DNA of 64,000 nucleotides from Beijerinckiaceae bacterium (lineage in GTDB: Bacteria; Pseudomonadota; Alphaproteobacteria; Rhizobiales; Beijerinckiaceae): assembly GCA_947475995.1 (NCBI GenBank), contig CANJNI010000022.1:2018-66017 (forward strand), in the 5' to 3' direction. A program made the translations under genes and the position numbers. Positions within the stretch are counted from its first letter, which is position 1. Every line of letters starts with the position of its first letter. Positions 41,109 to 64,000 of the stretch are shown here, in pieces. The notes beneath the pieces were generated by a model. The model ran no database searches. It saw only the letters and a program-made list of their open reading frames with translations, and had not been told where the DNA came from.

Positions 41109-42007
41109 GCGTCGATGGTTCCCTGTGCGACCATCACGGCTGCGCCGCCGATGGAGGCGTCGACCAACTGGCCGTCCTCCATGTCCAGGCCGAGCGTGAT
41201 GAGGCTCGGGCGGGCCATCTCGAATCCCTGCTCGATGACGAATGTATGGTTGCCGTCCGGCGGGTGGTCGAAATGCGCCACCACGCCCGCAAAGGCCGCG
41301 ACGGCCGAGCCGGTGGCAGGGTCTTCCATCACGCCGAGCGAGGGCGCGAACATGCGCGCGTGGAAGGCGCTGCCTTCATGCACTGTTTCGCGCGTGTAAA
41401 CGAACGCATTGGGATGATCGCCCGGTCCGATGGCCTTGTGCCAGTGCTCCATGAGAGGCCGCGCGCGCGCTGCCGCCTCCGCCGATTTCACAGGCACGAA
41501 CGTGAAGCCCAGCCCGGCCGACCAGACCATCGGGAAATGCCTGTCGCAGCCGATATCCTCCGGCTCAAGCCCGAGCGCTGCTGCAATCAGCACGTCATCG
41601 GCCGCCTGTGCGATTTCCACCGGCTCGGTGGGAAGCTGGAAATGGGCGCGCGCGGCGCGTCCTTTCGCCTGGCGCACCGTGCAGGCGACGTTTCCCACAT
41701 CCTCTTCCAGCACGACCGAGAGCGTCGGCATTCCGGGCGCATCCAGTTGCGCGATCAGCACCGCCGTCCCGATGGTCGGGTGACCCGCGAAGGGCAGTTC
41801 CCGCTGTGGCGTGAAGATGCGCACCCGCGCCGTATTGACCGGATCGCGAGGCGGCAGGACGAAGACGGTTTCGGACAGGTTGAACTCGCGCGCGACCGCC
41901 TGCATGCGCTCCGCCGACATGCCTTCTGCGCCGCGCACGACCGCCAGCGGGTTTCCGGCGAAAGGCGTCTCGGTGAAGACGTCGAGAATGTAGTAATTCC
42001 GCTTCAT
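41105..42007 (-). CDS. PhzF family isomerase
   Basis: [37 protein letters not shown]. Confidence 0.92.
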
Positions 42008-42154
42008 GCGAATCTCCGGCGTCAGGATAGCCCGCGCGGCCGGACCGGCACAACCGCCCTTTAGCTGACGTTTTGACTTGGGCCTCGCTTTCCCTGTAGG
42101 CGAAGCAAAGGGCGGCGGCCATAATGCGCCCGCCACGAAGCCAGCAGGGAAGAG

Positions 42155-44190: not shown

Positions 44191-44218
44191 CGCCAAGAGT
44201 TCAGGGGATACACAAGAC

Positions 44219-46315: not shown

Positions 46316-46322
46316 GGACCCA

Positions 46323-49396: not shown

Positions 49397-50131
49397 TCAG
49401 GCCGTCGCCAGCAGCATCCCGTGGCCCTGAATGGGCTTCCAGTCGTTCAGCTTGTGCATGACGCTCCAGACCATCGAGGGCTGGTTGGTGATGACGGGCT
49501 TTCGGAACTCTTCTTCGAGTTGGTCGGCCACATTGGTCACCAGCCAGCTGCCGCCGCCGATATAGACGGCATCGCAATCGGGGTTTTCCAGAAAGGCGCG
49601 CTTGCCGAGCTCATAGGCAAGCCGCGAATGGTCCTTGGCGGCGATCTTCTGGAAGTCTGACGGGGCGATTTCCTTGGTGACCTGACCGCAGACCGAAACG
49701 CCCTCGCGGCCGAGAAACTGCGCCAGCGTGGCGTTCATCGCGTCGGACCATTTGTTGACGCAGGCGACCTTTTTCAGCCCCATGTGGCGGCAAGCGCGCG
49801 CCACCGCATCGACGGTCGTGGCGGCGGGTTTGCCTGTGTAGGTCTGCATCCGGTCGAGCAAACGGTCGTGTCCGTCCAGACCCAGCACCAGCGGCAGCGG
49901 CACGCCGTTCTGCATGATGGCGTCGATGCCGCGCTCCATCAGCGAATCCATGTAGGATTCCAGCGGCGCGAAGATGCGGTCCATGTCGGCGGCTGAAAAC
50001 TCCTTGAGCCCCAGCGGGATCATCACCAGCATGTAATTCGATGGAAACAGATGGATCAGCTCATAGGCCGATACATCGATCACGTTCAGCGGCTGCAGGC
50101 TGCCGATGGAGAATTTTGGATCTTCGAGCAA
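49397..50131 (-). CDS. Asp/Glu/hydantoin racemase - maleate isomerase/arylmalonate decarboxylase family protein lacking the catalytic cysteines
   Basis: Family layout with PVIT.N..M.W at the end; probable TTG start after GGGAGG. Confidence 0.7.
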   Translation of the reverse strand: MLEDPKFSIGSLQPLNVIDVSAYELIHLFPSNYMLVMIPLGLKEFSAADMDRIFAPLESYMDSLMERGIDAIMQNGVPLPLVLGLDGHDRLLDRMQTYTGKPAATTVDAVARACRHMGLKKVACVNKWSDAMNATLAQFLGREGVSVCGQVTKEIAPSDFQKIAAKDHSRLAYELGKRAFLENPDCDAVYIGGGSWLVTNVADQLEEEFRKPVITNQPSMVWSVMHKLNDWKPIQGHGMLLATA

Positions 50132-50271
50132 ACGGACCTCCCGATTTTGGTTGATCGTAAACGCATGTCCAGCCTGCGGCAAAGTCGGCGCCGGAGGTCT
50201 TCTCCTGTGCGCCCGCAAGCACTAGATTGCCCCAGCGGGGCAGGAAGCCCGATTATTTGCGAGTCATTTGG

Positions 50272-50529
50272 ATGATCCTGATTTTCGAAGACCGCGGCTG
50301 GACGGTCGCCACCGCATCATGGTCGATGGGCTCTGACGACCAGAAAACCACCCAGATCATCTATACGTGGGGCGCTGATCGAATCAGCTTTTTTGACAGC
50401 GCGACCGGCACGGCGCGGTACACCTTCCACGTTCCTGTCGAGGAATTCATCAGCATCCTGAAAGCGCACGCCAATGAGGGCTGCTGCGACCTTCGGGCAT
50501 TTCTCAAGGACCGCGGCGCTCCGGCCTGA
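50272..50529 (+). CDS. Hypothetical protein
   Basis: Fills the intergenic gap; no family recognised; start uncertain. Confidence 0.4.
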   Translation: MILIFEDRGWTVATASWSMGSDDQKTTQIIYTWGADRISFFDSATGTARYTFHVPVEEFISILKAHANEGCCDLRAFLKDRGAPA

Positions 50530-50612
50530 CTTCGTCGTCCGACGACGGCGCACTTGCATTGACTCGAACGCTTCCCTCCCCACTATGCGCCCATCACAAA
50601 AGGACGCACGGG

Positions 50613-52772
50613 ATGGACGACAGGGCAGGGGCGCAAGCCCGTTCCAAAATCGAAAAAATTGAATCGCTGCTCAATCCGCGCAACGTCGTCATCGTCGGCG
50701 CGAGCGACAAGCCGGGCAACTGGTCGCCGCGCACCTGGCGCAACCTGAAGCGCTACAATTTCCCCGGCCCGATTTATCCCTACAATCCGACGCGCGACGA
50801 AATCTGGGGCGAGCGCTGCTATCGCAGCTTTGCCGAATTGCCTGAGCCGCCCGATCATCTGGTGGTGCTCGTTCCGGCGCCGCATGTGCCGGCGCTCTTG
50901 CGCGAGGCCGCCGCCGCTGGCGCGCGTTCTGCCACCATCATCACGGCGGGATTCAGCGAGTCGCCCGATCCCAAGCGCAAGGCGCTCGGTGAGGAACTGC
51001 GCCGCGTGGCGGAAGAGACGGGCCTTGCGATTTCGGGTCCCAATTGCCTGGGCAATTTCAACGCCAGCGCCTCGCTGTTCACTCTGCCGGACGATCGGTT
51101 GCAGCAATTCGTTGCAGGGCCCATCGCCATCGTGGCCCAGTCGGGCGGCATCGTGCTCGCGCTGAAACGCACGCTCGAAGAGCGCGGGCTTGCAGCCGGA
51201 ATGCTGGTGACGAGCGGCAACGAGACCGGCCTCACGGCGGCCGATTATATCGCCTATTACGCGCAGCATCCGGCGGTGAAAGTCGTCGTCGCCTATCTCG
51301 AAGCGATCCACGATCCGCCTGCCTTCATGGCGGCGCTGCGTTCCGCGAAAGCCGCCGGCAAGCCGGTGGTGATCTTCAAGCTGGGCGCATCCGAGGAGGG
51401 CAGGGCGGCTGCTGCTGCGCATACGGGCGCGCTGGCCGGCTCGGTCGAGGCTTTCGACGCCGTCGCGGGAGCGGCGGGCGCGGTGCGCGTCAAGAACATG
51501 GATGATCTCGTCGAGACTGTGGAGTTTCTGGTTCATGCGCGCAAACCGAACGGCGCGCGCCTTTCCGCGATCACCTATTCGGGCGGAATGCGCGGACTGA
51601 TCACCGATGCAGCCTCGGCCCACGGACTCAAGTTCCCGGCGCTGTCCGAAGAGAGCCGCAAGACGCTCGAACCCCACATGCTGCCGGGCGCGACAATCAA
51701 CAACCCTCTTGACGGCGGCCTCGGGGCTGCTGGCGGCGTCGACGGTTTCCTGCGTTCGGTCGAGGTCTATCTCAACGATCCGGGTTTCGACATTCTGCTG
51801 TTGCAGGAAGAGCTGCCGCGCGAGCCCGGCTCCCGCCGCGCCGAACAGGTGCTGCGCACCGTTAATGATCTCGCCGGAAAGGCCGGCAAACCCGTCGCGT
51901 TCATCAGCGTGCTGTCCTACGGGCTGAACGATTATTGCCGCGAATTGCGGACGGAATTGCCAAATCTCGCCATCATGCAGGAGCCTGACCGCGCCCTGCG
52001 GGCCATTCGTAACACAACCGATTACTATGCCCGCATGGCGGAGCCCGAGGTTCCGCCGCCCGCCCCGAACCCCGAGGGCAAGAGAATTCTCGCGGAATTG
52101 CTCTCCGGCTCTGGTCCGGCAACGCTCGACGAAGTGGCTTCAAAGCGCTTGCTGGCCGCCTACGGCATCCTCGGGCCGAAGGAGGCGCTTGCCGCCAATG
52201 CAGAGGAGGCGGCTGCCGCTGCCGACCGCATCGGCTATCCGGTCGTCGCCAAGGTGATGAGCGCCGCCATTCCGCACAAGAGCGACATGGGCGGCGTGAT
52301 CCTCAACCTGCGCAACGCGGACGAGGTGCGCGAGGCTTTCCGCAAGATCGCCGCAGCTGTGGCGGCTCTGCCGGACAATCCCGGCATGGATGGCGTGTTG
52401 ATCGCCGAAATGGCGACCGGCGGCCTTGAACTCGTGCTGGGCGCGGCGCGGGATTCCGAAATGGGCCCGGTGCTGATGTTCGGCTCCGGCGGGGTCGGCA
52501 TTGAACTGATGAAGGATGTCGCCTTCGCGGCTCCGCCGCTGGACGAGCGCACGGCGCGCGCGCTGATCGCCCGCACCAAGGTCGGCGCGTTGGTGAAAGG
52601 CTATCGGGGCAAGCCGCCGCTTGACGAAGCTGCGCTCGTGAAGGCTCTCATCGGCCTCTCCAGCCTCATCTGCGATGCGGGCGAGGCGCTGGAATCGGTG
52701 GACGTGAACCCGTTCCTGCTGCGCGAACAGGGCGGAGTGGCGCTGGACGGGCTGGTGGTGCTGCGGCGCTGA
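50613..52772 (+). CDS. ADP-forming acyl-CoA ligase (acetate-CoA ligase family), copy 2
   Basis: VVIVGAS, GPNCLG, QSGG, AHTG, HKSDMGGV, DVNPF. Confidence 0.9.
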   Translation: MDDRAGAQARSKIEKIESLLNPRNVVIVGASDKPGNWSPRTWRNLKRYNFPGPIYPYNPTRDEIWGERCYRSFAELPEPPDHLVVLVPAPHVPALLREAAAAGARSATIITAGFSESPDPKRKALGEELRRVAEETGLAISGPNCLGNFNASASLFTLPDDRLQQFVAGPIAIVAQSGGIVLALKRTLEERGLAAGMLVTSGNETGLTAADYIAYYAQHPAVKVVVAYLEAIHDPPAFMAALRSAKAAGKPVVIFKLGASEEGRAAAAAHTGALAGSVEAFDAVAGAAGAVRVKNMDDLVETVEFLVHARKPNGARLSAITYSGGMRGLITDAASAHGLKFPALSEESRKTLEPHMLPGATINNPLDGGLGAAGGVDGFLRSVEVYLNDPGFDILLLQEELPREPGSRRAEQVLRTVNDLAGKAGKPVAFISVLSYGLNDYCRELRTELPNLAIMQEPDRALRAIRNTTDYYARMAEPEVPPPAPNPEGKRILAELLSGSGPATLDEVASKRLLAAYGILGPKEALAANAEEAAAAADRIGYPVVAKVMSAAIPHKSDMGGVILNLRNADEVREAFRKIAAAVAALPDNPGMDGVLIAEMATGGLELVLGAARDSEMGPVLMFGSGGVGIELMKDVAFAAPPLDERTARALIARTKVGALVKGYRGKPPLDEAALVKALIGLSSLICDAGEALESVDVNPFLLREQGGVALDGLVVLRR

Positions 52773-52829: not shown

Positions 52830-53636
52830 ATGCGTCTGTTTCAGTGCCCGTGCCATGCCGCGTCTTTCGCTGCCTATGCGCCCGCCGATACAGGCGGCGG
52901 CTCACGCCCGGTTCCGGCCTCTGCGGGCCCGGTGGATCGCGCCGTGCTGGAAGAGCTGGCGGCCGCGAGCCGTATCCTGGCCGATCAGGGCGTGGTGGAC
53001 GCTTTCGGCCATGTGAGCATGCGCCATCCGGCCAATCCGAACCGGTTTCTGATGTCGCGTTCGCTCGCGCCCGCACTGGTCAGCGCCGACGACATCATGG
53101 AATTCGATCTCGATTGCGAAGCCTGCGAGTCGAAGGGCCGCAGCGGGTTTCTGGAGCGCTTCATTCACGGCGAAATTTACAAGGTGCGCGCCGACGTGAA
53201 CTCGGTGGTCCACAGCCATTCGCCGAGCATCATTCCGTTTGGCCTGACGAATGTGCCGATGCGGGCCATGTTCCACAATGCCGCCTTTCTGGCCGAAGGC
53301 GCGCCCGTCTTCGATATTCGCGAGAAATTCGGCGCGACCGACATGCTTGTGGGCAACCACGCCAAGGGCGCGGAACTCGCGCGCGTGATGGGCGATTGCC
53401 CGATTGCGCTGATGCGCGCGCATGGCAGCGTCGCCAGCGGCCCGAGCCTGCCGATTGCGGTTTTTCGCGCTGTTTACACCGAAAAGAACGCGCTGCTGCA
53501 GTTGCAGTCCACCATGCTGGCGGCTGGCGGGCCCATTGCGGCGCTCGATAGCGAGGAAGGCCCGAAGGCGGATGCGGTGAACATCACTTCCGCCTCCCGC
53601 GCCTGGGACCTCTGGAAACGCCGCGTCATGAACTGA
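52830..53636 (+). CDS. Class II aldolase/adducin family protein (heteroaromatic decarboxylase-like; start may be further downstream)
   Basis: DAFGHVS, LERFIHGEIY, VVHSHSP, LMRAHG. Confidence 0.85.
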   Translation: MRLFQCPCHAASFAAYAPADTGGGSRPVPASAGPVDRAVLEELAAASRILADQGVVDAFGHVSMRHPANPNRFLMSRSLAPALVSADDIMEFDLDCEACESKGRSGFLERFIHGEIYKVRADVNSVVHSHSPSIIPFGLTNVPMRAMFHNAAFLAEGAPVFDIREKFGATDMLVGNHAKGAELARVMGDCPIALMRAHGSVASGPSLPIAVFRAVYTEKNALLQLQSTMLAAGGPIAALDSEEGPKADAVNITSASRAWDLWKRRVMN

Positions 53637-53747
53637 CGGGGCGGGCTGCGGCGCGGCGCGCTATTTGCACGTCAGCGTCAGCATGCCATCATGAGCGCAA
53701 GGCGCGGGCGCCTGACCCGCGCGGAAAAAACCAGGAGAGCGAAGAAC

Positions 53748-54623
53748 ATGCACAAGGGCGTACAATGGCCGAACCCGACACTCAAATGGCCGGACGGCAA
53801 GCTCATCTGCTGCACGTTCCGCGTTGCCTATGAGGCGTTCCGCAAGAGCGGCCGTTTCAAGAAATCGCCCAAGATTCCGGTGAACGTCGCGTCCCTGTCG
53901 CACGCCAATTACGGCGGCGCGGTCGGCGTGTGGCGTCTCATGGATATTTACGAACGTCATGGGATTAAAGCCACGATCGGGGCGAACGGCCTCGCGGTGG
54001 AAAAATGGCCCGACACGATTCAGGCTTTTCACAAGGCCGGTCACGAAATCGCCAGCCACGGCCTCACAAATGACTATCACCTGACTGATCTTTCACCAGA
54101 GCAGCAGATCGAGGAAATTCGCGGCTGCACGAAGGTGATCGAGCAATGCACGGGCGTGCGTCCCATCGGGTGGGCCGGTCCGGGCAACCTGCATACGGCG
54201 GAAACGCTCGGCATTCTGGCCGATGAAGGCTACCAGTGGTTCGGCGACGCTTTCGATGACGACGTGCCCTACGTCGCCGAAGTGAACGGCAAGAACATCG
54301 CGGTCATTCCGAAGCTCAATTACGCCAACGACTGGCGCGCATGGTCGGGCGGCCTCGGCAATGCGACGACCTTCTTCGAGGGTTTCAAGACATCGTTCGA
54401 TTACATGTACGAGGAAGGGCTCCGGGGTCGCGCGGGCGCGATGGACCTGATCGTTCACGCCGAGCTTGGCGGTCGCCCGAACATCGCCTGCGCGATCGAA
54501 CAGATGATCCGCTACGTCAAGCAGTACGGCGATGAAGTGTGGATTCCGACCCGCAAGGAACTCGCCGACTACATGCTCAACGGTTCCGGCCTCAAGCCCG
54601 AACCCTATCGGCCGATGGACTGA
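53748..54623 (+). CDS. Polysaccharide deacetylase-fold protein, PuuE/allantoinase type, paralog A
   Basis: WPDGK, VAYE, YGG.VGVWRL, HEIASHG, GW.GP, DDDVPY, VH...GRP. Confidence 0.8.
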   Translation: MHKGVQWPNPTLKWPDGKLICCTFRVAYEAFRKSGRFKKSPKIPVNVASLSHANYGGAVGVWRLMDIYERHGIKATIGANGLAVEKWPDTIQAFHKAGHEIASHGLTNDYHLTDLSPEQQIEEIRGCTKVIEQCTGVRPIGWAGPGNLHTAETLGILADEGYQWFGDAFDDDVPYVAEVNGKNIAVIPKLNYANDWRAWSGGLGNATTFFEGFKTSFDYMYEEGLRGRAGAMDLIVHAELGGRPNIACAIEQMIRYVKQYGDEVWIPTRKELADYMLNGSGLKPEPYRPMD

Positions 54624-54709
54624 CCAATCTATCCGTCGCACAGTGGGCATGCCGCCGGGGAAGCGGCATGCGACTTGCTCGAATTCCAACAGCGATGGAG
54701 TACGCTGGC

Positions 54710-55807
54710 ATGAAGGGAACGAATTTCAAAGCCGCGCTTAGCGCTTTGGCGCTGGCGGGCGTCGTCGCGATGGTCTTTCCGGCCGCCGCGCAGCAATGGC
54801 CGGAGCTTTCTCCGGTCGAAAAGATCTATGCCGATCTGGCCAAGCTTCCTGCGGATGAACGCGCGAAGCGGATCGAGGAGGGCGCGAAGAAGGAAGGCAC
54901 GTTCATCCTCGTGCACACCTTGCGCGGCGAACTCGGCAACGGGCACATCAATCTGTTTCGCAAGCGCTACCCGTTCCTCAAGGTGGAGGCGACCGCCGAT
55001 ATCGGTTCGCAGGACGCGGCCGAGCGGCTCTATGCGGAAGAGACATCGGGCCGCCACCTGACCGACGTCATCGGCATCGGCCTGCCGGACGGTCGCGAAG
55101 TGCTGGCGAAGAATTATGCCGCCCGCTATCCGACGCCCGCCACCGACAAGATCTACCCGCCGCTCAAGAAGTTCAACGATCCGCAAAACCGCTGGGTTCT
55201 GTTCTTCTGGAGCGAACACGGCATGTCGTACAACAGCAACCTTGTGCCGGCCAACAAGGCCCCGAAGGACTGGTTCGACCTCTGTGACCCGTTCTTCAAG
55301 GGCAGCGTGTCGTTCGATCCCGCCGAAACGCGCTTCATCAGCGGCATCTACAACATCATGGGCGAGGAAAAGACCATCAAGTGGTTCGAATGCCTCGGGG
55401 CCAATAACCCGATCATCCAGCGCGGCCACACGCAGCGCATGGAACTGATGCTCGCCGGCGACCACATGGCGCAGGGCGACAACTATCTGTATCAGGGCCT
55501 GCAGATCAAAAAGAAGAACCCGTCTGCGCCTTACGTCATCGTCTATAGCGCGCCGATGATCGCCAGCATGGGCGGCTCGCTCATCAACCGCTTCGCCCCG
55601 CATCCCTATGCGTCGGCGCTGTGGATGGACTGGTCGGTCACCGACGAGAGCCAGCAGTACATTTCCAACCAGCTTCGCGGTCCCGTCACCATGAAGCATC
55701 CCTACCTGCCTGATGATGTGACGCTGGTCGACAATCTCGACCCGCCGCAGGACGTCGCCGACCGCCTGATGGCGGCCTGGATGAAGAATGTGGAGAAGAA
55801 GCGCTGA
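54710..55807 (+). CDS. ABC transporter substrate-binding protein (AfuA/FbpA-like class)
   Basis: Signal peptide, GAKKEG, MLAGD, APHPYASALW. Confidence 0.85.
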   Translation: MKGTNFKAALSALALAGVVAMVFPAAAQQWPELSPVEKIYADLAKLPADERAKRIEEGAKKEGTFILVHTLRGELGNGHINLFRKRYPFLKVEATADIGSQDAAERLYAEETSGRHLTDVIGIGLPDGREVLAKNYAARYPTPATDKIYPPLKKFNDPQNRWVLFFWSEHGMSYNSNLVPANKAPKDWFDLCDPFFKGSVSFDPAETRFISGIYNIMGEEKTIKWFECLGANNPIIQRGHTQRMELMLAGDHMAQGDNYLYQGLQIKKKNPSAPYVIVYSAPMIASMGGSLINRFAPHPYASALWMDWSVTDESQQYISNQLRGPVTMKHPYLPDDVTLVDNLDPPQDVADRLMAAWMKNVEKKR

Positions 55808-55841
55808 GCGATTTTGTCCACGTTGCATTCCAGATAGCCAG

Positions 55842-57599
55842 ATGGCGATGAGCGACACGACACCGGCCCCGCGCGCCTCCGCGCGCGCGGCTTCGGGCTT
55901 CCGGCTGGATTGGCGCACGATTGTGCTGGTCCTTCTGGTGCTGGGCCTTGCCTATCAGGTGGTCATCCCCTTCGTGATGATCATCTGGACGAGCCTGAAA
56001 ACCGTCCGGCCGGGAGATCCGGAATTCCTGTCGCTGACGGTGACTTTCGCGAATTATGCCCGCGCGTTCGGCTCGTCCGGCTTCTGGGCCGCGACGTGGA
56101 ACACGCTGTCCTTTGCGACGGCCTCGACGCTCGCGGCCTTCATCGTCGGCGCGTTCATCGCCTGGGTGGTTGAGCGTACGGATACGCCGCTCGCCAAGCT
56201 GATCGGCATGATCCTGATCGGCCGCATCATCATTCCGGGCATTCTGATCACGATCTCATGGATCCTGATTGCAAGCCCGAACATCGGCATCCTGAACCAG
56301 TTCATCAACCAGATGTTCGGGGTGCGGAATTTCTTCAACATCTACACGTTCTGGGGAATGGTGTGGGTGCAGTCCATCGAGATGGTGCCGCTGACATATC
56401 TGCTTTTGTCGGCCTCGTTCCAGGCGATGGACCCGCGCCTCGAAGAAGCCTCCACCATGACGGGCGCGGGCAACTGGCGCACGTTGCGGCGCATTTCGCT
56501 GCCGTTGGCGTTGCCGGCGGCGCTGGCGGCGCTGATGCTGCTTTTTGTCACCAGCATCGAGACATTCGAGGTGCCCCTGCTGATGGGCGGCCGCGCCGGC
56601 ATCCGGGTCTTCAGCACGGAGATATTCTTCAACACCTCCCGCACGCCCATCGACTGGGGCCTGTCGGCGACCTATTCGGTCGCGATGCTGTCAGTCTGCA
56701 TTGCGCTGCTGTTCGTCTATTTCCGCCTTCTGCGGCATGGCGAGCGCTACCAGACCGTGACCGGCAAGGATTTTCGTCCGCGCCGCATCGAACTCGGCCG
56801 GTGGAAATATCTCACCTCGGCGCTTGCGCTGCTCATCGTCTTCATCATCACCGGCATTCCGCTTCTGATGATGATCTACGTCTCGCTGCTCGGCTTCTAT
56901 CAGGCGCCGAGCTGGGCGGCTGTCCAGAGCATGTCGCTCGACAATTACCGGACGCTGTTCTCGTCCGCGAGCGCCATGATGCCGATGCTGAACTCGACGA
57001 TCCTCGGCATCGCGACAGCGACAGCCGTCGTGCTGGTCGTGTCGCTCATCGCCTATTTCGTCCACAAGACACAGATACGCGGTCGCAAGCTGCTCGACTA
57101 TCTGGCCTTCGCGCCGATCGCGATTCCCAGTGTCATTCTGGGCTCCACGTTCCTGTGGTTTTACCTGCTCGTGCCGGTGCCGGTGATCGGCACCTTGACC
57201 ATCATCGGTCTTGCGTATCTGACGAAATATCTGCCCTTCGCGCTTCGTTTCGTGTCGAATTCGATGATGCAGATCCATCCCGAACTCGACGAGGCCGCGC
57301 AGGTGGCGGGCGTGCCGTGGTGGCGCAACTTCTTCAAGGTGACTTTGCCGCTGCTGAAGCCGGGCCTGCTCGCCGCATGGTTCTGGGTGATGGTGCACGC
57401 CTATCGCGAACTCACCGTCGCCCTGATGCTGGCGCGTTCCGAAAATCGCACCGCCGCGGTGCTGATCTTCGATTTCTGGGATCGCGGCTCGTTCATGCAG
57501 ATCAGCGCCTTCGGGGTGCTGATGTTCTCGCTTCTTCTCGTGCTTGTGCTGATCTCGCACTGGATCGGCAAGCGCTACGGCATTCAGGACCAGCATTGA
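55842..57599 (+). CDS. ABC transporter permease (duplicated TM core, FbpB-like)
   Basis: Two EAA motifs (LEEASTMTGA and LDEAAQVAG). Confidence 0.9.
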   Translation: MAMSDTTPAPRASARAASGFRLDWRTIVLVLLVLGLAYQVVIPFVMIIWTSLKTVRPGDPEFLSLTVTFANYARAFGSSGFWAATWNTLSFATASTLAAFIVGAFIAWVVERTDTPLAKLIGMILIGRIIIPGILITISWILIASPNIGILNQFINQMFGVRNFFNIYTFWGMVWVQSIEMVPLTYLLLSASFQAMDPRLEEASTMTGAGNWRTLRRISLPLALPAALAALMLLFVTSIETFEVPLLMGGRAGIRVFSTEIFFNTSRTPIDWGLSATYSVAMLSVCIALLFVYFRLLRHGERYQTVTGKDFRPRRIELGRWKYLTSALALLIVFIITGIPLLMMIYVSLLGFYQAPSWAAVQSMSLDNYRTLFSSASAMMPMLNSTILGIATATAVVLVVSLIAYFVHKTQIRGRKLLDYLAFAPIAIPSVILGSTFLWFYLLVPVPVIGTLTIIGLAYLTKYLPFALRFVSNSMMQIHPELDEAAQVAGVPWWRNFFKVTLPLLKPGLLAAWFWVMVHAYRELTVALMLARSENRTAAVLIFDFWDRGSFMQISAFGVLMFSLLLVLVLISHWIGKRYGIQDQH

Positions 57600-57618
57600 T
57601 GTATTTGGTGGAGCAGAC

Positions 57619-58707
57619 ATGATCCGGGTCGAAGGCCTGCGCAAGACCTTCCAGTCGAAGAACGAAACCGTTCACGCGATCCGCGATGTTTCGTTCGAGG
57701 TGGGTTCAGGCGAAATCGTCACGCTGCTCGGCCCGTCCGGCTGCGGCAAGACCACGACATTGCGTTGCATCGCGGGACTTGAGAAGCCGACGGGCGGCAA
57801 GATCGCAATCGGCGATCGCCACGTCGTGGATGTGGAGGCCGGCGCATTCATTCCGCCGCATCGCCGCGACCTCGGCATGGTGTTCCAGTCCTACGCCATC
57901 TGGCCGCATATGAACGTGATCGAGAATGTCGCCTATGCGCTGGAGGGCAGGGGGCTTTCGAAGGCCGACATGCGCCAGCAGGCCATGAAGGCGCTGGACA
58001 CGGTGCAGATGGCGCATCTGGCGGATCGGCCTGCTCCGCGTCTTTCCGGCGGCCAGCAGCAGCGCGTCGCCATCGCACGCGCGCTCGTCGGCCATCCGCA
58101 GGCGCTGCTGTTCGACGAACCGCTCAGCAACCTTGATGCGAAACTGCGCAACGAGATGCGCAAGGAATTGCGCCGGCTGCAGCAGCAGATCGGCCTTACT
58201 TCCGTTTACGTGACGCACGACCAGTCCGAAGCTCTGGCGATATCGGACTGGGTCATCCTCATGAAGGACGGCGCCATCGTCGAAAAGGGTCGTCCGACAG
58301 ATATCTATCGCCGTCCGCGCAGCGTCTTCACCGCGCAATTCATTGGGACCACCAACCTGATCCCCGGCAGGCTTGAGTCGCGCGACGGATCGCAGGTTGC
58401 GGTCGCCACGTCGCATGGACGTCTGGTCGGGGTCGAACCGACCGGGGCGCTGGAGGTCGGCGCGAAGGTGCAGGTGAGCGTGCGTCCCGAAGCGATGCAC
58501 GCCGGCGCGGCCGCCGGTCCCAACGTCAATTCGCTTTCGGGCGCGCTCGAACTTGCCGTTTTCGCAGGCTCGGCCGTTGAGGCGGAAGTGCGCGCCAATG
58601 GCGAGAAAATTCTTTGCCTGCTCGACTATGACGCTGACCGGACGGCCGGTCACGATATCAGCCTGCATTTTTCAAGTGACGATACGCTCGTACTTGCCGA
58701 CGCATAG
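57619..58707 (+). CDS. ABC transporter ATP-binding protein with a TOBE-like C-terminus
   Basis: GPSGCGKT, LSGGQQQR, LLFDEPLSNLD, VTHDQ. Confidence 0.95.
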   Translation: MIRVEGLRKTFQSKNETVHAIRDVSFEVGSGEIVTLLGPSGCGKTTTLRCIAGLEKPTGGKIAIGDRHVVDVEAGAFIPPHRRDLGMVFQSYAIWPHMNVIENVAYALEGRGLSKADMRQQAMKALDTVQMAHLADRPAPRLSGGQQQRVAIARALVGHPQALLFDEPLSNLDAKLRNEMRKELRRLQQQIGLTSVYVTHDQSEALAISDWVILMKDGAIVEKGRPTDIYRRPRSVFTAQFIGTTNLIPGRLESRDGSQVAVATSHGRLVGVEPTGALEVGAKVQVSVRPEAMHAGAAAGPNVNSLSGALELAVFAGSAVEAEVRANGEKILCLLDYDADRTAGHDISLHFSSDDTLVLADA

Positions 58708-58719
58708 GAGAAAAAGAAA

Positions 58720-60066
58720 ATGGCCGCTTTTCAGCCTGTGAAGGAACTCAGCCGCGACGAAGTGATTGCGCGCTCCAACGCCGTCCTCGCCATGCCGGAT
58801 CAGCCGATCACCGAAACCGAAGACATTTTCCGCATCGAGGCGCTGGGCCTCGAATGGGACATGGGCGTCACTGTTTATGAGCCGAAGGAGGTCGCGCGCG
58901 GGGCTGATGGCAAGAAGATCGGCATTTTCGTGCTGCACGGCGGCTCAGGCGATTACAAGTCGATGGTCGATATCTGCCGCACCTTCGCGAAGAAGTTTTC
59001 GTGCAAGGTGATGGGCATGACGTTCCCGGGCCGTCTCTATCTCGACGATACCAGCCGCGACTGGCCGAAGGACACCATCAACTCTGATGGCACGGTGCGC
59101 ACGCCCATGTGGAAGAAGGGCGAATATATCACGCCCGATCAGTACGAGGTGAAGCGCGATACGTCGATGCGCTTCCGCTATGGAACGCGCACCGTCGCCC
59201 ACGCAAAGCCCGGAACGACGTTCTGGAACCGCATGGCCGGCTGGCCCTATGCGTTCGAGATGGGAATGAAGGACGCGATGCGTCGCCATTTTCCGGAAGG
59301 CGAATTTTCGATTTACGTGACCGGCCATTCCACCGGCGGCCCGATGGTGTTCATGATCTGCCAGCGCGTGCCGAACATCGCGGGCGTCATTGCAGTCGAG
59401 AATTCTCCGTTCGGGTACATTCAGGAAGAGCAGCACTCGTGGTCGGGCGCGCTCGGCAAGGTTGCGGGCTTCGAGCGCGTGACCACCAAGAAGGCGCTGC
59501 GCACGGACCCGTTTTATGAACTCTACATTCGCACGTGGCGCGATCGCGCGCGGTATGCGGGCCCCGAAGCGCTGGGTCAGGAAGGCCCGAACGCGCTTAT
59601 GCGTTTGCCCTGGCTGATGGAGGAAATCTTCGACTGGTGGGACAAGACGAAAGCGCGCCCGCAGTTCAAGGCGGAGTACGTCATCACCCACAACATCCAG
59701 TCGTCGCTTGAGGCCGCCGCGCGCGCGACCGCGGAGCGCCTGAAGCTGGATGCGGCTGAAACCGAAAAGCTCGTGCAACACTACAAGGGCTTTCCGTATC
59801 CGCAGAAAGGCCCGGGCGCCAAGCCCGTGCCGCCTATCCTGTTCGTGCTTGCAAAGGACAGCCGCGATCATTCGCCCGAAGTCTACGAGGAAATCGTCGT
59901 CCCGATGTTCAAGCAGATCAATCCGGCGCCGAAAGTGAACGTGACGCGCTTCGGCGCGGGCGTGCACACCTACCACAAGGCGGAAGAGGGACTGCCGCTC
60001 GGCATCGTCCCCACCGTCGCGGATTATTATTTCAAGGCCATCACCGGCGGCTATTTCGTCGTTTGA
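58720..60066 (+). CDS. Uncharacterised alpha/beta-hydrolase, tandem paralog A
   Basis: LHGG, GHSTGG nucleophile elbow, LAKDSRD, GAGVH. Confidence 0.7.
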   Translation: MAAFQPVKELSRDEVIARSNAVLAMPDQPITETEDIFRIEALGLEWDMGVTVYEPKEVARGADGKKIGIFVLHGGSGDYKSMVDICRTFAKKFSCKVMGMTFPGRLYLDDTSRDWPKDTINSDGTVRTPMWKKGEYITPDQYEVKRDTSMRFRYGTRTVAHAKPGTTFWNRMAGWPYAFEMGMKDAMRRHFPEGEFSIYVTGHSTGGPMVFMICQRVPNIAGVIAVENSPFGYIQEEQHSWSGALGKVAGFERVTTKKALRTDPFYELYIRTWRDRARYAGPEALGQEGPNALMRLPWLMEEIFDWWDKTKARPQFKAEYVITHNIQSSLEAAARATAERLKLDAAETEKLVQHYKGFPYPQKGPGAKPVPPILFVLAKDSRDHSPEVYEEIVVPMFKQINPAPKVNVTRFGAGVHTYHKAEEGLPLGIVPTVADYYFKAITGGYFVV

Positions 60067-60075
60067 GGAACGCGC

Positions 60076-61446
60076 ATGGATGACGTGAAATCTAAATCGG
60101 GCTGGCAGCCCGTCTCGACCCTGTCGCGTGAGGAAGTCATCGCGCGTTCCGAGGCTGTGCTGGCGCGTCCCGCCCGCAAGGTCGAGGATCGCGAGGACAT
60201 CTTCCGCATCAATGTGCTCGCGCTCGACTGGGACATTGGCGTGCGCGTCTACGAACCGCAGCCTGCGAGCGACATCACGCGCGGCGCGGACGGCAAGAAG
60301 GTCGGCATCTTCCTGCTGCACGGCGGCGCGGGCGACTACAAGTCCATGGAGCGTTTCGCGCTGCTGTTCGCGGAAAAGTTCGGCTTCAAGGTCGTCACCA
60401 TGACGTTCCCGGGCCGCCTTTATCTCGACGATCCGAGCCGCGACTGGCCGGGCGACACGATTAATTCTGACGGCGCCGTGCGCACGCCCATATGGCTTGC
60501 GGGCGAATATGTGACGCCCGATCAGTACGAACTCGTGCGCGATACGTCCAAGCGCATGAAATACGGCACGCGGACGTCGGCGCGCGCAAAGCCCGGCACA
60601 CGCTTTTATGACCGCATGTCGTCCTGGCCGATGGCCTTTGAGGAAGGCATGAAGGAAGCCTGCCGACGGCATTTCCCGGAAGGCGAGTTTTCGATCTATG
60701 TCCACGGTCATTCGACTGGCGGGCCATATGTTTCGATGCTGTCGCAGCGCGTTCCGAACATTGCCGGCGTGATCGCCATCGAGAACTCCACCTTCGGTTA
60801 TATCAACGAGCGCAAGCACCAGTGGGGCGGTCATGTCGGCCGCATCGAGGGTTACAAGCCCGTTGCGGAGAAAACCGCAGAAGCGTGGAAGGATCCTTTC
60901 AACGATCTCTACATTCGCACCTGGCGTGATCTGGCGCGCTATCGCGGCTCGGAGGCGCTGGGGCAGGAAGGCCCGAACGCCCTGATGCGCTTGCCCTGGC
61001 TGATGGAAGAAATTCTTGACGCCTGGGAGGTCGCCCGCAAGCGTCCGCAGTTCAAGGCTGAATATATGGTGACGCACAATATCGTCAGCGCGCTCGAACA
61101 GGCGGCGCGCGCTGCGGCCTTGCGTCTCAAGCTTTCGCCGGATGAAACCGAAAAGCTCGTCGCGCGCTACACGGGGCTGACGCGGGAAGTTAAAGGCGGC
61201 AAACCCGTGCCCCCCTTCCTGTTCGTGATCTCCAAGGACAGTCGCGATCACTCGCCGCAGGTCTACGAGGACGTCATCATCCCCATGTTCAACGCCATGA
61301 GTCCGACGCCGCGCACCGCCGTGACGCGCTTCATGGCAGGCGTTCACACCTATACGAAGCCGGAAGAGGGGCTGCCGTTCGGCATCGCGCCCGCCGCCGC
61401 GCAATATTATCACGATGCGATCGTGGGCGGCTTCTTCGCCGTCTGA
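60076..61446 (+). CDS. Uncharacterised alpha/beta-hydrolase, tandem paralog B
   Basis: LHGG, GHSTGG, ISKDSRD, MAGVH; collinear with paralog A. Confidence 0.7.
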   Translation: MDDVKSKSGWQPVSTLSREEVIARSEAVLARPARKVEDREDIFRINVLALDWDIGVRVYEPQPASDITRGADGKKVGIFLLHGGAGDYKSMERFALLFAEKFGFKVVTMTFPGRLYLDDPSRDWPGDTINSDGAVRTPIWLAGEYVTPDQYELVRDTSKRMKYGTRTSARAKPGTRFYDRMSSWPMAFEEGMKEACRRHFPEGEFSIYVHGHSTGGPYVSMLSQRVPNIAGVIAIENSTFGYINERKHQWGGHVGRIEGYKPVAEKTAEAWKDPFNDLYIRTWRDLARYRGSEALGQEGPNALMRLPWLMEEILDAWEVARKRPQFKAEYMVTHNIVSALEQAARAAALRLKLSPDETEKLVARYTGLTREVKGGKPVPPFLFVISKDSRDHSPQVYEDVIIPMFNAMSPTPRTAVTRFMAGVHTYTKPEEGLPFGIAPAAAQYYHDAIVGGFFAV

Positions 61447-61456
61447 GGAGGAACGA

Positions 61457-62311
61457 ATGGTGCGTCCGGTCACGCCGTATCCTGACGGCAAAATGATTTG
61501 CGCCACCTTCACGGTGGCGTTCGAGGCCTTCACGCGCGGCGGGCATTTCAAGAAAGCGAAAGGCCTCGAGGTCAATCTCGTGTCCCTGTCGCACGCCAAT
61601 TACGGCGGCAACGCAGGCATATGGCGCATTCTGGAAATCCTTCAGCGCAACGACGTCACCGCGACCATCGACGTCAACGGACTTGCGGTGCAGAAATGGC
61701 CCGAGGCCGTGAAGGCGCTGCACGAGCAGGGCAGCGAGATCACCGGCCACGGCACCACAAACGACATCAAGATGACGGATCTGAATCCCGAGCAGCAACG
61801 CAAGGAGATTCAGGAAGTCAGCCGCATCATCAGGGAAGTGACGGGCGTCGCGCCGCGCGGCTGGGTCAGTCCGGGCGGCCACCACACGCGCGAGACGCTG
61901 AGCATCCTGGCCGATGAAGGCTACATCTGGTGCGGCGACCAGTGCGACGACGATCTGCCTTATCTGGTCGAAGTCGAAGGCAAGAAGATGTGCGTCATTC
62001 CCAAGCACTGGTTCTACAATGACTGGCGTGCGTGGAACGGCGGCGCCAGCAATGGGGCCATGGCTTTTCAGGGCTTCAAGGACGGCTTCGATTTCGTCTA
62101 CGAGGAAGCGTTGCGCGGCAAGCCCGGACGCATTGATGCGCTTGTTCACGCCGAACTTGGCGGACGCCCCTATCAGGCGCATGCGTTCGAGAAGATGATC
62201 CGCTACACGAAGCAGTTCGCCGATCTGGTCTGGTTCCCCACACGCGCGGAACTCGCCGAACATATGCTGAAGAACTCGACCTATGTCGAAACCTACAAGC
62301 CTCTTGGTTAG
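61457..62311 (+). CDS. Polysaccharide deacetylase-fold protein, PuuE/allantoinase type, paralog B
   Basis: YPDGK, VAFE, SLSHANYGG, EITGHG, DDDLPY, VHAELGGRP. Confidence 0.8.
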   Translation: MVRPVTPYPDGKMICATFTVAFEAFTRGGHFKKAKGLEVNLVSLSHANYGGNAGIWRILEILQRNDVTATIDVNGLAVQKWPEAVKALHEQGSEITGHGTTNDIKMTDLNPEQQRKEIQEVSRIIREVTGVAPRGWVSPGGHHTRETLSILADEGYIWCGDQCDDDLPYLVEVEGKKMCVIPKHWFYNDWRAWNGGASNGAMAFQGFKDGFDFVYEEALRGKPGRIDALVHAELGGRPYQAHAFEKMIRYTKQFADLVWFPTRAELAEHMLKNSTYVETYKPLG

Positions 62312-62320
62312 GACGAAAAC

Positions 62321-63043
62321 ATGCCTGTTGCGCTTATTACCGGTGGTGGAAGCCTGATCTGCGAAGGCATCGCGATGACGCTCAGCGCGCGCGGCTGGCA
62401 TGTCGTGGTCACCGATATCAATCTCGACAATGCGAAACTCGTCGCGGGCAAATGCCAGGGGCCGGGCAGCGCCGAAGCCATCCACCTTGACGCGACGAAG
62501 CCGGAACAGATTGACGCTGTCGTCAAGGACATTCTGGCGCGTCATGGCGGCATTGACGGCCTCGTCAACGGCGCCGGCGGCGGGCGCGGCATCGGCTTTC
62601 CGCGCATGCCCTTCGTCGAGATGACGCACGATTACTGGACGCGCATGCTGGACGCCAACCTCAACAGCATGATCAACGTCACCCATGCGGTGCTGCCCTC
62701 GATGATCGAGCGGCGCAGCGGCTCCATCGTCAGCATCGCAGCAGGCAGGGGCCTGAAGGGCGGTCGCAACGCCGCGATCTATTCCGCCGCAAAGGCCGCC
62801 ATCATCGTCTTCGCGCAGTCCGTTGCGCAGGAAGTCGGCAAGCACAATGTGCGCGTCAACACGATCGCGCCGGGCAATGCGGAAGCTCGCTGGAAAAAGC
62901 CGGGCGATGAAGTTCGCTCGCCGCTTGGCCGCAACACCAGCCCGGAGGACGTCGGCAAGGGGGTCGCCTTCCTGCTGTCGGAGGACGCCAGTCACATTAC
63001 CGGCTCTTGCCTCGATATTTCGGGCGGCACGTCGCTGCATTAA
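62321..63043 (+). CDS. Short-chain dehydrogenase/reductase (atypical motifs)
   Basis: ALITGG, YSAAK, VRVNTIAPG, ITG..LDISGG. Confidence 0.88.
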   Translation: MPVALITGGGSLICEGIAMTLSARGWHVVVTDINLDNAKLVAGKCQGPGSAEAIHLDATKPEQIDAVVKDILARHGGIDGLVNGAGGGRGIGFPRMPFVEMTHDYWTRMLDANLNSMINVTHAVLPSMIERRSGSIVSIAAGRGLKGGRNAAIYSAAKAAIIVFAQSVAQEVGKHNVRVNTIAPGNAEARWKKPGDEVRSPLGRNTSPEDVGKGVAFLLSEDASHITGSCLDISGGTSLH

Positions 63044-63115
63044 TCAAGGCTTGCGCCCGGCCCCGTCCTGTGGCTCTTTTCGCCGCGATCCGGTCCAGCT
63101 TTTGAGGGGGAAACC

Positions 63116-63631
63116 ATGTCTGTCAGCCTGTATTCGATTTCCGCGCCTATTTTCGTACAGTTCCTGAATTCGATGTCGGGCGTTCTCGGCAAGGCGCAAG
63201 CCCATGCAGAGGCCAAGAAGATCGACATGAACTACCTCATGACGTCGCGGCTTGCCCCCGACATGTTCCCGCTCGTGCGTCAGGTGCGCGCCGTGACGGA
63301 TCATGCGGTCGGCGGCGTCGGCCGTCTGGCGGGCGTCGATCTGCCGACCTTCCCGGGCGAAGAGCAGACCCTTGCCGATTTGCAGAAGCGGATCGAGATC
63401 GCAGTGGCCTTCGTCAAGACCATCAAGCCGGAGCAGATGAACGGCTCGGGCGACAAGGAAATCGTCCTGAAGTTCCCCAGCGGCGAGCGCAAGTTTGTCG
63501 GCACCGGTTATCTGCTGAACTTCGCACTGCCGAACTTCTTTTTCCATCACACGACTGCTTACGACATCCTTCGTCACAACGGCGTGGAGCTCGGCAAGCG
63601 CGACTTCATGGGCACGCCGGTCACGCTCTGA
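63116..63631 (+). CDS. DUF1993 family protein
   Basis: RLAPDMFPL..QV, LPNFFFH.TTAY.ILRHNGVELGKRDF. Confidence 0.9.
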   Translation: MSVSLYSISAPIFVQFLNSMSGVLGKAQAHAEAKKIDMNYLMTSRLAPDMFPLVRQVRAVTDHAVGGVGRLAGVDLPTFPGEEQTLADLQKRIEIAVAFVKTIKPEQMNGSGDKEIVLKFPSGERKFVGTGYLLNFALPNFFFHHTTAYDILRHNGVELGKRDFMGTPVTL

Positions 63632-63644
63632 CCGGAACGTCGCG

Positions 63645-63673
63645 GCTTTGCGGGGCCGGCGGCCCCGCGAAGC
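63645..63673 (+). terminator. GC-rich hairpin after DUF1993 (possible terminator)
   Basis: gctttgcggggcc-ggc-ggccccgcgaagc; no long U tract. Confidence 0.45.
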
Positions 63674-63716
63674 AATCCAGACAACTGTTCACAGCAGATG
63701 TCGTAAAGGAAACGCC

Positions 63717-64000
63717 ATGTCGATCCTTTCCGGCTATCGGGTGCTCGACCTGTCCCGCGTCCGCTCCGGCCCGTCCTGCGTGCGCATGCTGTCTGACTGG
63801 GGCGCCGACGTCACTGCGGTCGAGCGCCATGCGGCCGATGGCGAAGATGACGCTTTCGGCTCGCGTCACAGCGCCGATTTTCAGAACCTGCATCGCAACA
63901 AACGCAGCATCGCGATCGACCTCAAGTCCGAAACCGGTCTCGAGATCTTCATGCGTCTCGTCGATCATGCCGACGTGGTGGTCGAAAACTTTCGCCCCGA
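63717..64000 (+). CDS. Family III CoA transferase (CaiB/BaiF), 5' part, runs off the window
   Basis: AAGGA RBS; MSILSGYRVLDLSRVRSGP...WGADV...HRNKRSIAIDLKS...VVVENFRP. Confidence 0.9.
   Translation, partial: MSILSGYRVLDLSRVRSGPSCVRMLSDWGADVTAVERHAADGEDDAFGSRHSADFQNLHRNKRSIAIDLKSETGLEIFMRLVDHADVVVENFRP

Follow-up and report, generated by a model that had tools for sequence, protein, structure and literature searches.

Gene arrangement

The window analysed here is a 64,000-nucleotide stretch of contig CANJNI010000022.1 from a Beijerinckiaceae bacterium (GenBank assembly GCA_947475995.1), and the subject of this report is a block of co-directional genes on its + strand (52830–64000). Eight of these genes (53748–63043) constitute a core that recurs in other genomes and that combines an ATP-binding cassette (ABC) importer with a short-chain dehydrogenase/reductase (SDR) and two pairs of paralogous hydrolases, one of which belongs to an orphan family.

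Families were assigned by searching the open reading frames (ORFs) of the window, with their translations, against Pfam and NCBIfam. The first core gene encodes PuuE-like A (53748–54623; Polysacc_deac_1, E 2e-16); its longest ORF begins at 53691, and 53748 is the likely start because homologues are 290–291 residues long. It is followed by a periplasmic solute-binding protein (SBP; about 54710–55807; SBP_bac_6), a fused double permease (about 55842–57599; two BPD_transp_1 stretches) and an ABC ATPase with a TOBE domain (57619–58707; ABC_tran, E 1e-35, and TOBE_2). Next come the two paralogous α/β-hydrolases, Hyd1 (58720–60066; 448 residues) and Hyd2 (60076–61446; 456 residues), then PuuE-like B (61457–62311; Polysacc_deac_1, E 4.5e-18) and a classical, FabG-like SDR (62321–63043; adh_short and adh_short_C2, about E 1e-48), all on the + strand. 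An identical copy of Hyd1 is present on metagenomic scaffolds, and on contigs carrying it PuuE-like B is called as a 284-residue product.

The co-directional run extends from 50.5 kb to the end of the window. Eleven genes fall within 52830–64000, and a CoA ligase gene upstream makes twelve; an earlier interpretation of the same DNA from its letters alone (the sequence-only reading) had the common direction right and the number, given as ten, too low. Its other observations on the layout hold. The spacing that it gave as 10–20 nt from permease to SDR is 9–19 nt (permease to ATPase, 19; ATPase to Hyd1, 12; Hyd1 to Hyd2, 9; Hyd2 to PuuE-like B, 10; PuuE-like B to SDR, 9), with flanking gaps of 34–111 nt. 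As it noted, the enzymes lack signal peptides: in the translations the SBP alone has a signal-peptide-like N-terminus, MKGTNFKAALSALALAGVVAMVFPAAAQQ. The two enzyme types that it described as duplicated are indeed paralogous pairs, with 67% identity between Hyd1 and Hyd2 in the alignment and 54% between PuuE-like A and B.

On its 5′ side the core is preceded by AldII, a class II aldolase-fold decarboxylase-like protein (52830–53636; Aldolase_II, E 1e-24), and by the CoA ligase, a nucleoside diphosphate (NDP)-forming acyl-CoA synthetase (50559–52772; CoA_binding_2, Succ_CoA_lig and ATP-grasp_5). On its 3′ side lie a DUF1993 protein (63116–63631; PF09351, E 2e-57) and the 5′ part of a family III CoA-transferase gene (63717–64000; CoA_transf_3, E 1e-28), cut by the end of the window; all four are on the + strand. 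The corresponding gaps are 57 nt from ligase to AldII, about 111 nt from AldII to PuuE-like A, about 86 nt from PuuE-like A to SBP, about 34 nt from SBP to permease, 72 nt from SDR to DUF1993 and 85 nt from DUF1993 to the CoA transferase. Consensus scans for promoter- and terminator-like sites returned as many hits as in shuffled sequence. Directly 3′ of the DUF1993 stop codon is a GC-rich, 13-bp hairpin (63645–63673, + strand), and the 96-nt stretch containing it has a predicted folding energy of −40.4 kcal/mol (z −2.5). The hairpin has no U-tract and hence was not called by the terminator scan; it may mark where transcription of the unit ends or is attenuated.

Conservation of the core

When one genome per species was scanned, a Hyd relative turned up in 203 genomes, from which 80 loci were retrieved (identified below by L numbers) and compared using tblastn with all window proteins and clustering of the flanking ORFs; many of these loci are cut by contig ends. 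A PuuE-like gene adjoins Hyd in 25 of the 80, and in 21 of those 25 an SBP gene is present as well. Across all 80 loci, the ATPase occurs in 17, the permease in 15, the SDR in 13 and two Hyd genes in 19. The conserved core consists of PuuE-like A, SBP, permease, ATPase, Hyd1, Hyd2, PuuE-like B and SDR, and it recurs in about 25–30 alphaproteobacterial genomes from several families, in at least three gene orders. Its hosts are soil and peat Alphaproteobacteria, notably metagenome-assembled genomes (MAGs) labelled Xanthobacteraceae and Beijerinckiaceae; cultured strains hardly ever carry it, the one example among the 80 loci listed being Rhizobium sp. P32RR-XVIII (L037; contig NZ_JABAIH010000008.1, region 101435–122775). 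Among PLSDB plasmids, megablast with the block gave short ABC-ATPase matches only and tblastn with Hyd1 gave none.

The window order, PuuE-like A, SBP, permease, ATPase, Hyd1, Hyd2, PuuE-like B and (SDR), is found in L004, L011, L014, L018, L020–L024 and L031. In L037, L088 and L091 a divergent SBP gene (− strand) is followed by PuuE-like A, SDR, permease, ATPase, two Hyd genes and PuuE-like B; all three have an HTH-cupin gene at most a few kilobases from these genes, which in L091 directly adjoins the SBP gene. L090 has the order SBP, permease, ATPase, Hyd, Hyd, PuuE-like, SDR, PuuE-like, and five Rhodospirillales-like MAGs (L042–L044, L059 and L066) carry a mini-module of a divergent SBP gene (− strand) with PuuE-like A, SDR and Hyd2. 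Recurrence of the same content in shuffled order argues that the arrangement is beyond chance and that selection acts on gene content rather than on inherited synteny.

The flanking genes behave differently. None of the 80 loci has a counterpart of DUF1993 or of the acyl-CoA synthetase, and for the CoA transferase there is a single weak match; all three lie outside the conserved core. AldII adjoins the core only on the contig of P0001, a Hyd1 homologue with 97% identity, and in L014, L021 and L024 (48–49% identity), and is an occasional accessory rather than a core gene. The sequence-only reading had treated the whole block as one catabolic operon, which stands for the eight-gene core but not for DUF1993 and the CoA transferase, which drop out, or for the decarboxylase, which is found in a minority of loci. 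Its proposal that the block feeds acyl-CoA metabolism fares worse: the CoA genes are not co-conserved, and such a link would at best be specific to the window genome.

Several non-orthologous accessory genes recur beside the core. A decarboxylase adjoining it is either of the AldII type or, in L089, of the UbiD family, the core of that locus being preceded by the UbiD-family gene, an MmgE/PrpD gene and a TctC gene; MmgE/PrpD proteins are also found in L021 and L024. Directly 3′ of PuuE-like B in L006, L018, L020 and L022 lies a Fer2 + MoCoBD hydroxylase with a twin-arginine translocation (TAT) signal, followed by acyl-CoA dehydrogenase and Amidohydro_2 proteins, and L090 has a MoCoBD protein upstream. 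Genes of the Amdase/Asp-Glu-racemase superfamily occur in the window (49397–50218), in L087 and, as two copies, in L090, while L010, L014 and L058 have an M20 amidohydrolase together with an ornithine-cyclodeaminase-family gene. TctC/Bug-type binding proteins bind carboxylates. Singly these accessories are weak indicators; jointly they point to carboxylated, nitrogen-containing (hetero)cyclic substrates.

ABC importer

A secreted-type SBP, a BPD_transp_1 permease and an ABC ATPase identify the transporter as a type I binding-protein-dependent ABC importer. The best NCBIfam models are PhnU2 for the permease (157 bits against a cut-off of 593), PhnT2 for the ATPase (324 against 458) and, weakly, PRK15046, a 2-aminoethylphosphonate (2-AEP) binding protein, for the SBP (17 against 310), all three being models of 2-AEP transporters; permease orthologues are 585–593 residues long. 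The system shares a cluster-D SBP, a single fused double permease and a TOBE-domain ATPase with importers of the PhnS2T2U2, Fe3+ and AfuA types. It differs from PhnS2T2U2 in that all window scores are far below the equivalog cut-offs and no phosphonate-catabolism genes accompany it, and from Fe3+-type importers in that the window block has no iron-regulation context. A role in phosphonate catabolism was rejected, since the resemblance is limited to the transporter and the catabolic genes are missing, as was recycling of ester or amide siderophores, for which a TonB receptor and an SBP or permease of the siderophore type are lacking.

The AlphaFold2 (AF2) model of the SBP (predicted local distance difference test, pLDDT, 81) has the cluster-D 'Fe3+/AfuA/PotD-like' fold, and the family contains many invariant Arg and His residues. 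Its Foldseek neighbours are 5t1p, FbpA/HitA, MctA, AfuA, P5PA, AgtB and a 2-AEP-type protein, of which MctA binds metal-citrate, AfuA hexose phosphates, P5PA pyridoxal 5′-phosphate (PLP) and AgtB the carboxylated lactam opine agropinic acid. An anionic organic ligand for the SBP would therefore have precedent.

The nearest solved SBP relatives (FbpA, HitA, FutA and metal-citrate binders) and the annotation 'iron(III) transport system' could instead mean that an iron or metal-chelate importer merely sits amid unrelated cytoplasmic hydrolases. We give this only the slenderest of chances: the SBP, permease and ATPase genes accompany the PuuE-like, Hyd and SDR genes in three or more different gene orders across several alphaproteobacterial families, the gaps are 9–19 nt, the block contains no terminator and the SBP fold group includes binders of organic anions.

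PuuE-like pair

The closest structures to PuuE-like A and B in a PDB profile search are 3s6o, 1z7a and 3cl6 (E 1e-31 to 1e-35; about 1e-32 for A), of which 3cl6 and 1z7a are PuuE allantoinases and 3S6O is a Burkholderia protein that is 91% identical to the imidase BpIH (PMC11424739). Another CE4 branch comprises cyclic imide hydrolase (CIH; EC 3.5.2.16), such as the imidase of P. putida YZ-26 and HxnM, together with HpPgdA; of these, HpPgdA (3qbu) matches the pair at E about 3e-13, more weakly than PuuE. In PuuE, a Glu-His-Trp triad replaces the Asp-His-His metal triad of CE4 enzymes (Ramazzina 2008, as cited in PMC11424739). The window pair resembles PuuE and the PuuE-like imidases BpIH/AfIH in its CE4 fold, its length of about 290 residues, the retention of the Glu and both His and the absence of Asp-His-His; the pair can be aligned with PuuE only over the C-terminal four-fifths, at visibly low identity.

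The conserved motifs follow the pattern Glu / His-x3-Asn / His, with the Glu in VA[YF]EAF, the Asn in HG[LMT]TN and the equivalent of His259 in VHAELGGRP. A Glu-His-Asn triad with the conserved catalytic His is present in the window pair and in all 34 relatives examined in alignments, and the Asn at the position of the PuuE Trp is kept in both the A and the B clade; PuuE-like B, for instance, has HGTTN where PuuE reads HGYRW. Of the CE4 metal-triad motifs, TFDD has become TF[RT]VA[YF]E and HxxxH has become HGxTN, although the Pfam domain is still matched. Because Glu-His-Asn replaces Asp-His-His, the two proteins lack the metal site of true deacetylases and are classed as CE4-fold amidohydrolases of the metal-independent type.

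Against the PuuE model TIGR03212, whose cut-off is 424.6 bits, A and B score 139.7 and 133.6 bits, well short of equivalog level. With these scores and a different triad the two proteins are not allantoinases, and the 'PuuE-type' label of the sequence-only reading goes too far, whereas the role that it proposed for them in hydrolysing cyclic C–N bonds is reasonable. No genes of purine or ureide catabolism were detected at 31.6–64 kb or among the Pfam-annotated flanks of the loci looked up. Relative to PuuE, the window pair has Asn for Trp, scores of 134–140 bits where 425 would be expected and no purine-catabolism neighbours. The subfamily is small (227 proteins at E<=1e-20), and orthologues of PuuE-like A within core loci are 63–91% identical. 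The pair represents a distinct subfamily within the CE4 branch whose enzymes act on small cyclic ureides and imides by opening the ring.

Two conventional assignments were tried and set aside: purine or allantoin catabolism, in view of the sub-cut-off scores, the different triad and the lack of a fitting context, and classical sugar or chitin deacetylation, in view of the missing metal triad, the absence of a glycoside hydrolase and a transporter of the wrong type.

Hyd1 and Hyd2

Hyd1 and Hyd2 belong to a family of proteins of about 450 residues that retain 60–80% identity across phyla. Hyd1 has over 1500 close homologues; for the 120 listed, identity is 68–97%. Soil metagenomes and MAGs are the source of almost every homologue, and none of them has a Pfam domain or more than a generic name. 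Four motifs are invariant, HGG (73–75), GHSTGG (Ser204), KDSRDH (Asp380/383) and GVHTY (His416), and they follow one another in the order expected for a putative oxyanion hole, nucleophile, acid and histidine. No Cys is invariant in the alignment of the family.

Similarity to known families was found at superfamily level only, whether by Pfam, NCBIfam, PDB profile, Foldseek or HMMER searches. Pfam gives a sub-threshold match to Lipase_3 around GHSTGG (E 0.004–0.01) and NCBIfam gives none; the PDB profile search found no sequence relative, its best match having an E of 0.0013 over 33 residues. HMMER, run exhaustively against 1.84 billion cluster representatives, returned only 417 matches at E<=1e-3; of the 150 listed, the majority are fragments from the Hyd family itself and only a handful are full length. 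The AF2 model of Hyd1 (pLDDT 76; predicted template-modelling, pTM, score 0.81) yields Foldseek probabilities of 1.0 for many α/β-hydrolases, the neighbours being remote: hormone-sensitive lipase (HSL)-type esterases, Lpx1, CinB and CE7 esterases, with TM-scores of 0.3–0.5 and about 10% identity. With a GxSxG elbow, an oxyanion motif, an acid, a His and the fold, Hyd1 and Hyd2 fall within the α/β-hydrolase superfamily, where they form a compact orphan family that has neither a Pfam or NCBIfam model nor a solved relative. The description of the two as unknown α/β-hydrolases in the sequence-only reading was therefore accurate.

In a neighbour-joining tree the Hyd2 clade stands apart from the Hyd1 clade. 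Combined with the gene neighbourhoods, the tree shows that members of the Hyd2 clade almost always occur with PuuE-like, SDR and SBP genes, and that members of the Hyd1 clade also occur alone, adjoining TctC binding proteins, M20 amidohydrolases or aromatic-type FAD (flavin adenine dinucleotide) monooxygenases. Most members of a third clade come from MAGs that bear the labels Binatia, Thermodesulfobacteriota or other deltaproteobacterial names. There (L045–L067) the Hyd gene has no PuuE-like neighbour; two genes follow it in strong synteny, one for a luciferase-like (LLM) oxidoreductase and one for an amidase of the isochorismatase family that resembles BiuH/RutB.

A further set of stand-alone homologues (P0093–P0118) are 595–618 residues long and have a Lys/Ala/Pro-rich N-terminal extension of about 150 residues, which sometimes matches the histone-H1-like Pfam family HC2. 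One such extended gene, in L082 (10001–11830), lies between three TctC binding-protein genes and PMT-family glycosyltransferases.

The structural neighbours of Hyd1 raise the possibility of ester-centred catabolism, in which the import would be of a soluble oligo-ester or a hydroxy acid acylated on O or N, such as the 3-hydroxyalkanoate oligomers that depolymerases of other organisms set free. Hyd would act as esterases or oligomer hydrolases and the PuuE-like pair as deacylases, the SDR would oxidize the hydroxy acid so released in the manner of 3-hydroxybutyrate dehydrogenase, and in the window genome the CoA transferase would activate the keto acid. HSL-type and acetyl-xylan esterases among the Foldseek neighbours, the HGG oxyanion motif and the sub-threshold similarity of the SDR to 3-hydroxybutyrate dehydrogenase models fit this scheme, and TctC neighbours suit carboxylate-bearing substrates. 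Lys/Ala-rich histone-H1-like extensions of the kind found on some stand-alone Hyd proteins resemble polyhydroxyalkanoate (PHA)-granule proteins, and a CoA transferase lies downstream in the window. However, the PuuE-like pair has no CE4 Asp-His-His site and resembles hydrolases of cyclic amides, the SDR reaches only 125 bits with the PHB_DH model (cut-off 307), the CoA transferase is not co-conserved and the recurrent neighbours are amidohydrolases, decarboxylases and Mo-hydroxylases rather than β-oxidation or PHA genes. On balance we consider such an ester-based route rather unlikely.

SDR, AldII and CoA transferase

No NCBIfam equivalog is reached by the SDR. It matches the pyridoxal 4-dehydrogenase model (E 8e-40; 137 bits against a cut-off of 325) and PDB entry 3ndr, and its orthologues, with 54–72% identity, adjoin PuuE-like or Hyd genes. 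AldII is a homologue of Mlr6791, the 3-hydroxy-2-methylpyridine-4,5-dicarboxylate decarboxylase of vitamin B6 degradation pathway I (PDB 2z7b; E 9e-49, about 45% identity over 230 residues); it keeps the HxH and H metal ligands (VHSHSP and RAHG) and shows homology of the HMPDdc type, while its score against PhtC (NF053537, 3,4-dihydroxyphthalate decarboxylase) is 82.4 bits, below the cut-off of 200. The CoA-transferase fragment is nearest to formyl-CoA, succinyl-CoA:mesaconate and succinate-glutarate CoA-transferases in NCBIfam, all far below cut-off.

The sequence-only reading had drawn an analogy with vitamin B6 degradation, and a variant of such a pathway, with decarboxylase, SDR and α/β amidohydrolase acting on pyridine-carboxylates as in pathway I of Mesorhizobium loti, has to be weighed. 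The homology of AldII to Mlr6791, an enzyme of that pathway, is clear, the SDR matches noted above point the same way and the SBP is remotely similar to the PLP-binding P5PA. The analogy nevertheless stops at single genes. None of the remaining pathway I genes (MHPC oxygenase, 4-pyridoxolactonase, pyridoxal 4-dehydrogenase and AAMS hydrolase) was detected at 31.6–64 kb, so that those for ring cleavage are missing there, and neither an MHPC-type flavin monooxygenase nor a GMC oxidase is found in the same region. AldII is missing from most core loci, the SDR score is far from the pyridoxal dehydrogenase cut-off, Hyd has no detectable sequence relation to Pfam, NCBIfam or PDB entries, among which the known hydrolases of such pathways would be expected, and the PuuE-like pair has no counterpart in the pathway. 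A B6-type pathway is accordingly very improbable.

Proposed function

We tentatively propose, at somewhat less than an even chance, that the core serves to take up and hydrolyse a small cyclic amide or imide with a carboxylate group: the SDR would oxidize it, the PuuE-like pair would open its ring and Hyd would hydrolyse the amide. The ABC importer would take up a small polar compound, probably carboxylated, with a cyclic amide, imide or ureide ring; reduced or hydroxylated pyridones or piperidinediones, substituted succinimides, glutarimides or maleimides and hydantoin-like rings are possible examples. In the cytoplasm the SDR may oxidize a ring hydroxyl, for instance converting a hydroxy-lactam to an imide, after which the metal-independent PuuE-like amidohydrolases would open the ring at a C–N bond to give a half-amide (amic acid), and Hyd, with a putative Ser-Asp-His triad, would hydrolyse the remaining amide (or ester) to ammonia and a di- or tricarboxylate. 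Each pair of paralogues might divide regio- or stereoisomers between its members, or act on two related bonds in turn. In the window genome this route could be extended by the Mlr6791-like decarboxylase upstream and by the flanking genes for CoA ligase and CoA transferase.

We favour a cyclic amide because the PuuE-like pair lacks the metal triad and its nearest characterized relatives, PuuE and BpIH, open cyclic ureides and imides, because the neighbours of Hyd elsewhere include TctC proteins, M20 amidohydrolases, FAD monooxygenases and isochorismatase-like amidases, and because the structural neighbours of the SBP include binders of anionic organic ligands. The confinement of the signal peptide to the SBP, all enzymes being without one, is consistent with hydrolysis after import; the co-conservation of the core through shuffled gene orders and the indication of carboxylated N-heterocycles by the recurrent non-orthologous accessories argue in the same direction.

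A further reason is a precedent for the same enzyme logic in the nicotinate route of Aspergillus nidulans, where HxnW (an SDR), HxnM (a CE4-like cyclic imide hydrolase) and HxnN (an amidase) act in succession to convert 5,6-dihydroxypiperidin-2-one via 3-hydroxypiperidine-2,6-dione and α-hydroxyglutaramate to α-hydroxyglutarate (PMC9304392); the SDR turns a hydroxy-lactam into a cyclic imide, whose ring the PuuE-related CE4-fold hydrolase opens before the amidase sets ammonia free. Both systems encode an SDR, a CE4-like cyclic amide hydrolase and, if the proposed role of Hyd is right, an amide hydrolase. The Hxn system is fungal, however; HxnM lies in the CIH/HpPgdA branch, which the window pair matches only at E about 1e-13, and HxnN is of the amidase-signature type whereas Hyd is an α/β-hydrolase. 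Hxn has no ABC importer and no duplication, and its upstream hydroxylases and ene-reductase are absent from the conserved core of the window. Searches of the profile libraries and the literature turned up no described pathway with this gene set, in agreement with the sequence-only reading, whose 'undescribed catabolic operon' is right for the eight-gene core.

Several points weigh against the proposed route. The substrate class, the order of the steps and the amide chemistry of Hyd are what we infer from gene content, co-conservation, folds and families and active-site motifs, and ester hydrolysis by Hyd would be equally compatible with its model because the nearest Foldseek structures are esterases. 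The core contains no enzyme that reduces or hydroxylates a ring, which rules out an aromatic N-heterocycle as direct substrate. Fe3+-binding proteins make up most of the nearest relatives of the SBP in sequence and structure, and its automatic annotation is that of an iron(III) transporter. In L089 (GCA_037024515.1, JBAIGO010000003.1) the SDR, PuuE-like, SBP and permease genes stand together with no Hyd or ATPase gene within 10 kb. There is no regulator gene within the window block, and Rfam gives no match and no riboswitch at E<=1 in 40–64 kb.

A biochemical parallel comes from Blastobacter sp. A17p-4, reportedly an alphaproteobacterium related to Bradyrhizobium, in which Ogawa, Soong and Shimizu are said to have described an imidase and a half-amidase that together convert a cyclic imide via the half-amide to a dicarboxylate and NH3. 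The half-amidase is reported as a roughly 48-kDa, sulfhydryl-sensitive enzyme, near in size to Hyd1 and Hyd2 (about 50 kDa); the sulfhydryl sensitivity, set against the lack of an invariant Cys in Hyd, counts as another point against the proposed route. The imidase is said to be dihydropyrimidinase-like and not of the CE4 type. To our knowledge the half-amidase activity was never cloned, and we know of no gene sequence for it.

In its boldest form, which we regard as improbable, our proposal would have Hyd found a new amidase-type family of α/β-hydrolases, 'half-amidases' that convert amic acids to dicarboxylates and ammonia, and, together with a new PuuE-like imidase subfamily, define a widespread soil pathway for carboxylated cyclic imides and hydroxy-lactams. 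Candidate substrates would be piperidinedione intermediates derived from pyridines and tetrapyrrole-derived maleimides such as hematinic acid, and the activity described biochemically in 2000 would then have a gene. What remains of the probability, after the main proposal and the three alternatives above, belongs to some other explanation.

The combination of a substrate-specific ABC importer and cytoplasmic hydrolases is familiar in kind; what is new here is a variant that includes an uncharacterized enzyme family. Assigning a substrate to Hyd would annotate thousands of 'hypothetical' genes and define a new branch of the PuuE/imidase group, whose enzymes are already in industrial use for imide desymmetrization, and might reveal how soil bacteria recover nitrogen from an unrecognized class of cyclic amides. 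The significance would be high only if Hyd turned out to represent an amidase class that is new and linked to such an unrecognized pool in soil. Even with a mundane substrate, annotation would be corrected, the proteins being neither allantoinases nor deacetylases and the transporter not one for iron.

Neighbouring genes

Divergent from the acyl-CoA synthetase gene is an Amdase-like gene of the Asp/Glu-racemase superfamily (49397–50218, − strand), which scores 87 bits against the arylmalonate decarboxylase model (cut-off 225). The intergenic region between these two divergent genes contains a 100-codon ORF (50227–50529, + strand) with a third-position GC content of 0.74. A second co-directional block (43168–47495, + strand) encodes an SBP_bac_6 protein, an NDP-forming acyl-CoA synthetase that is a paralogue of the one at 50559–52772 and a PGA_cap/CapA-family protein, the best NCBIfam model for which is the MslH lasso-peptide C-terminal Trp epimerase (112 bits against a cut-off of 700). 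A 634-residue protein (41105–43009, − strand) has a C-terminal PhzF-type isomerase region of 290 residues and an N-terminal region of about 340 residues without a Pfam match; it may be a fusion or an over-extended ORF. A 1249-residue protein encoded at 35246–38995 (+ strand) resembles AsmA, DUF748 and YhdP proteins of the outer-membrane lipid-transport type and is unrelated to the operon.

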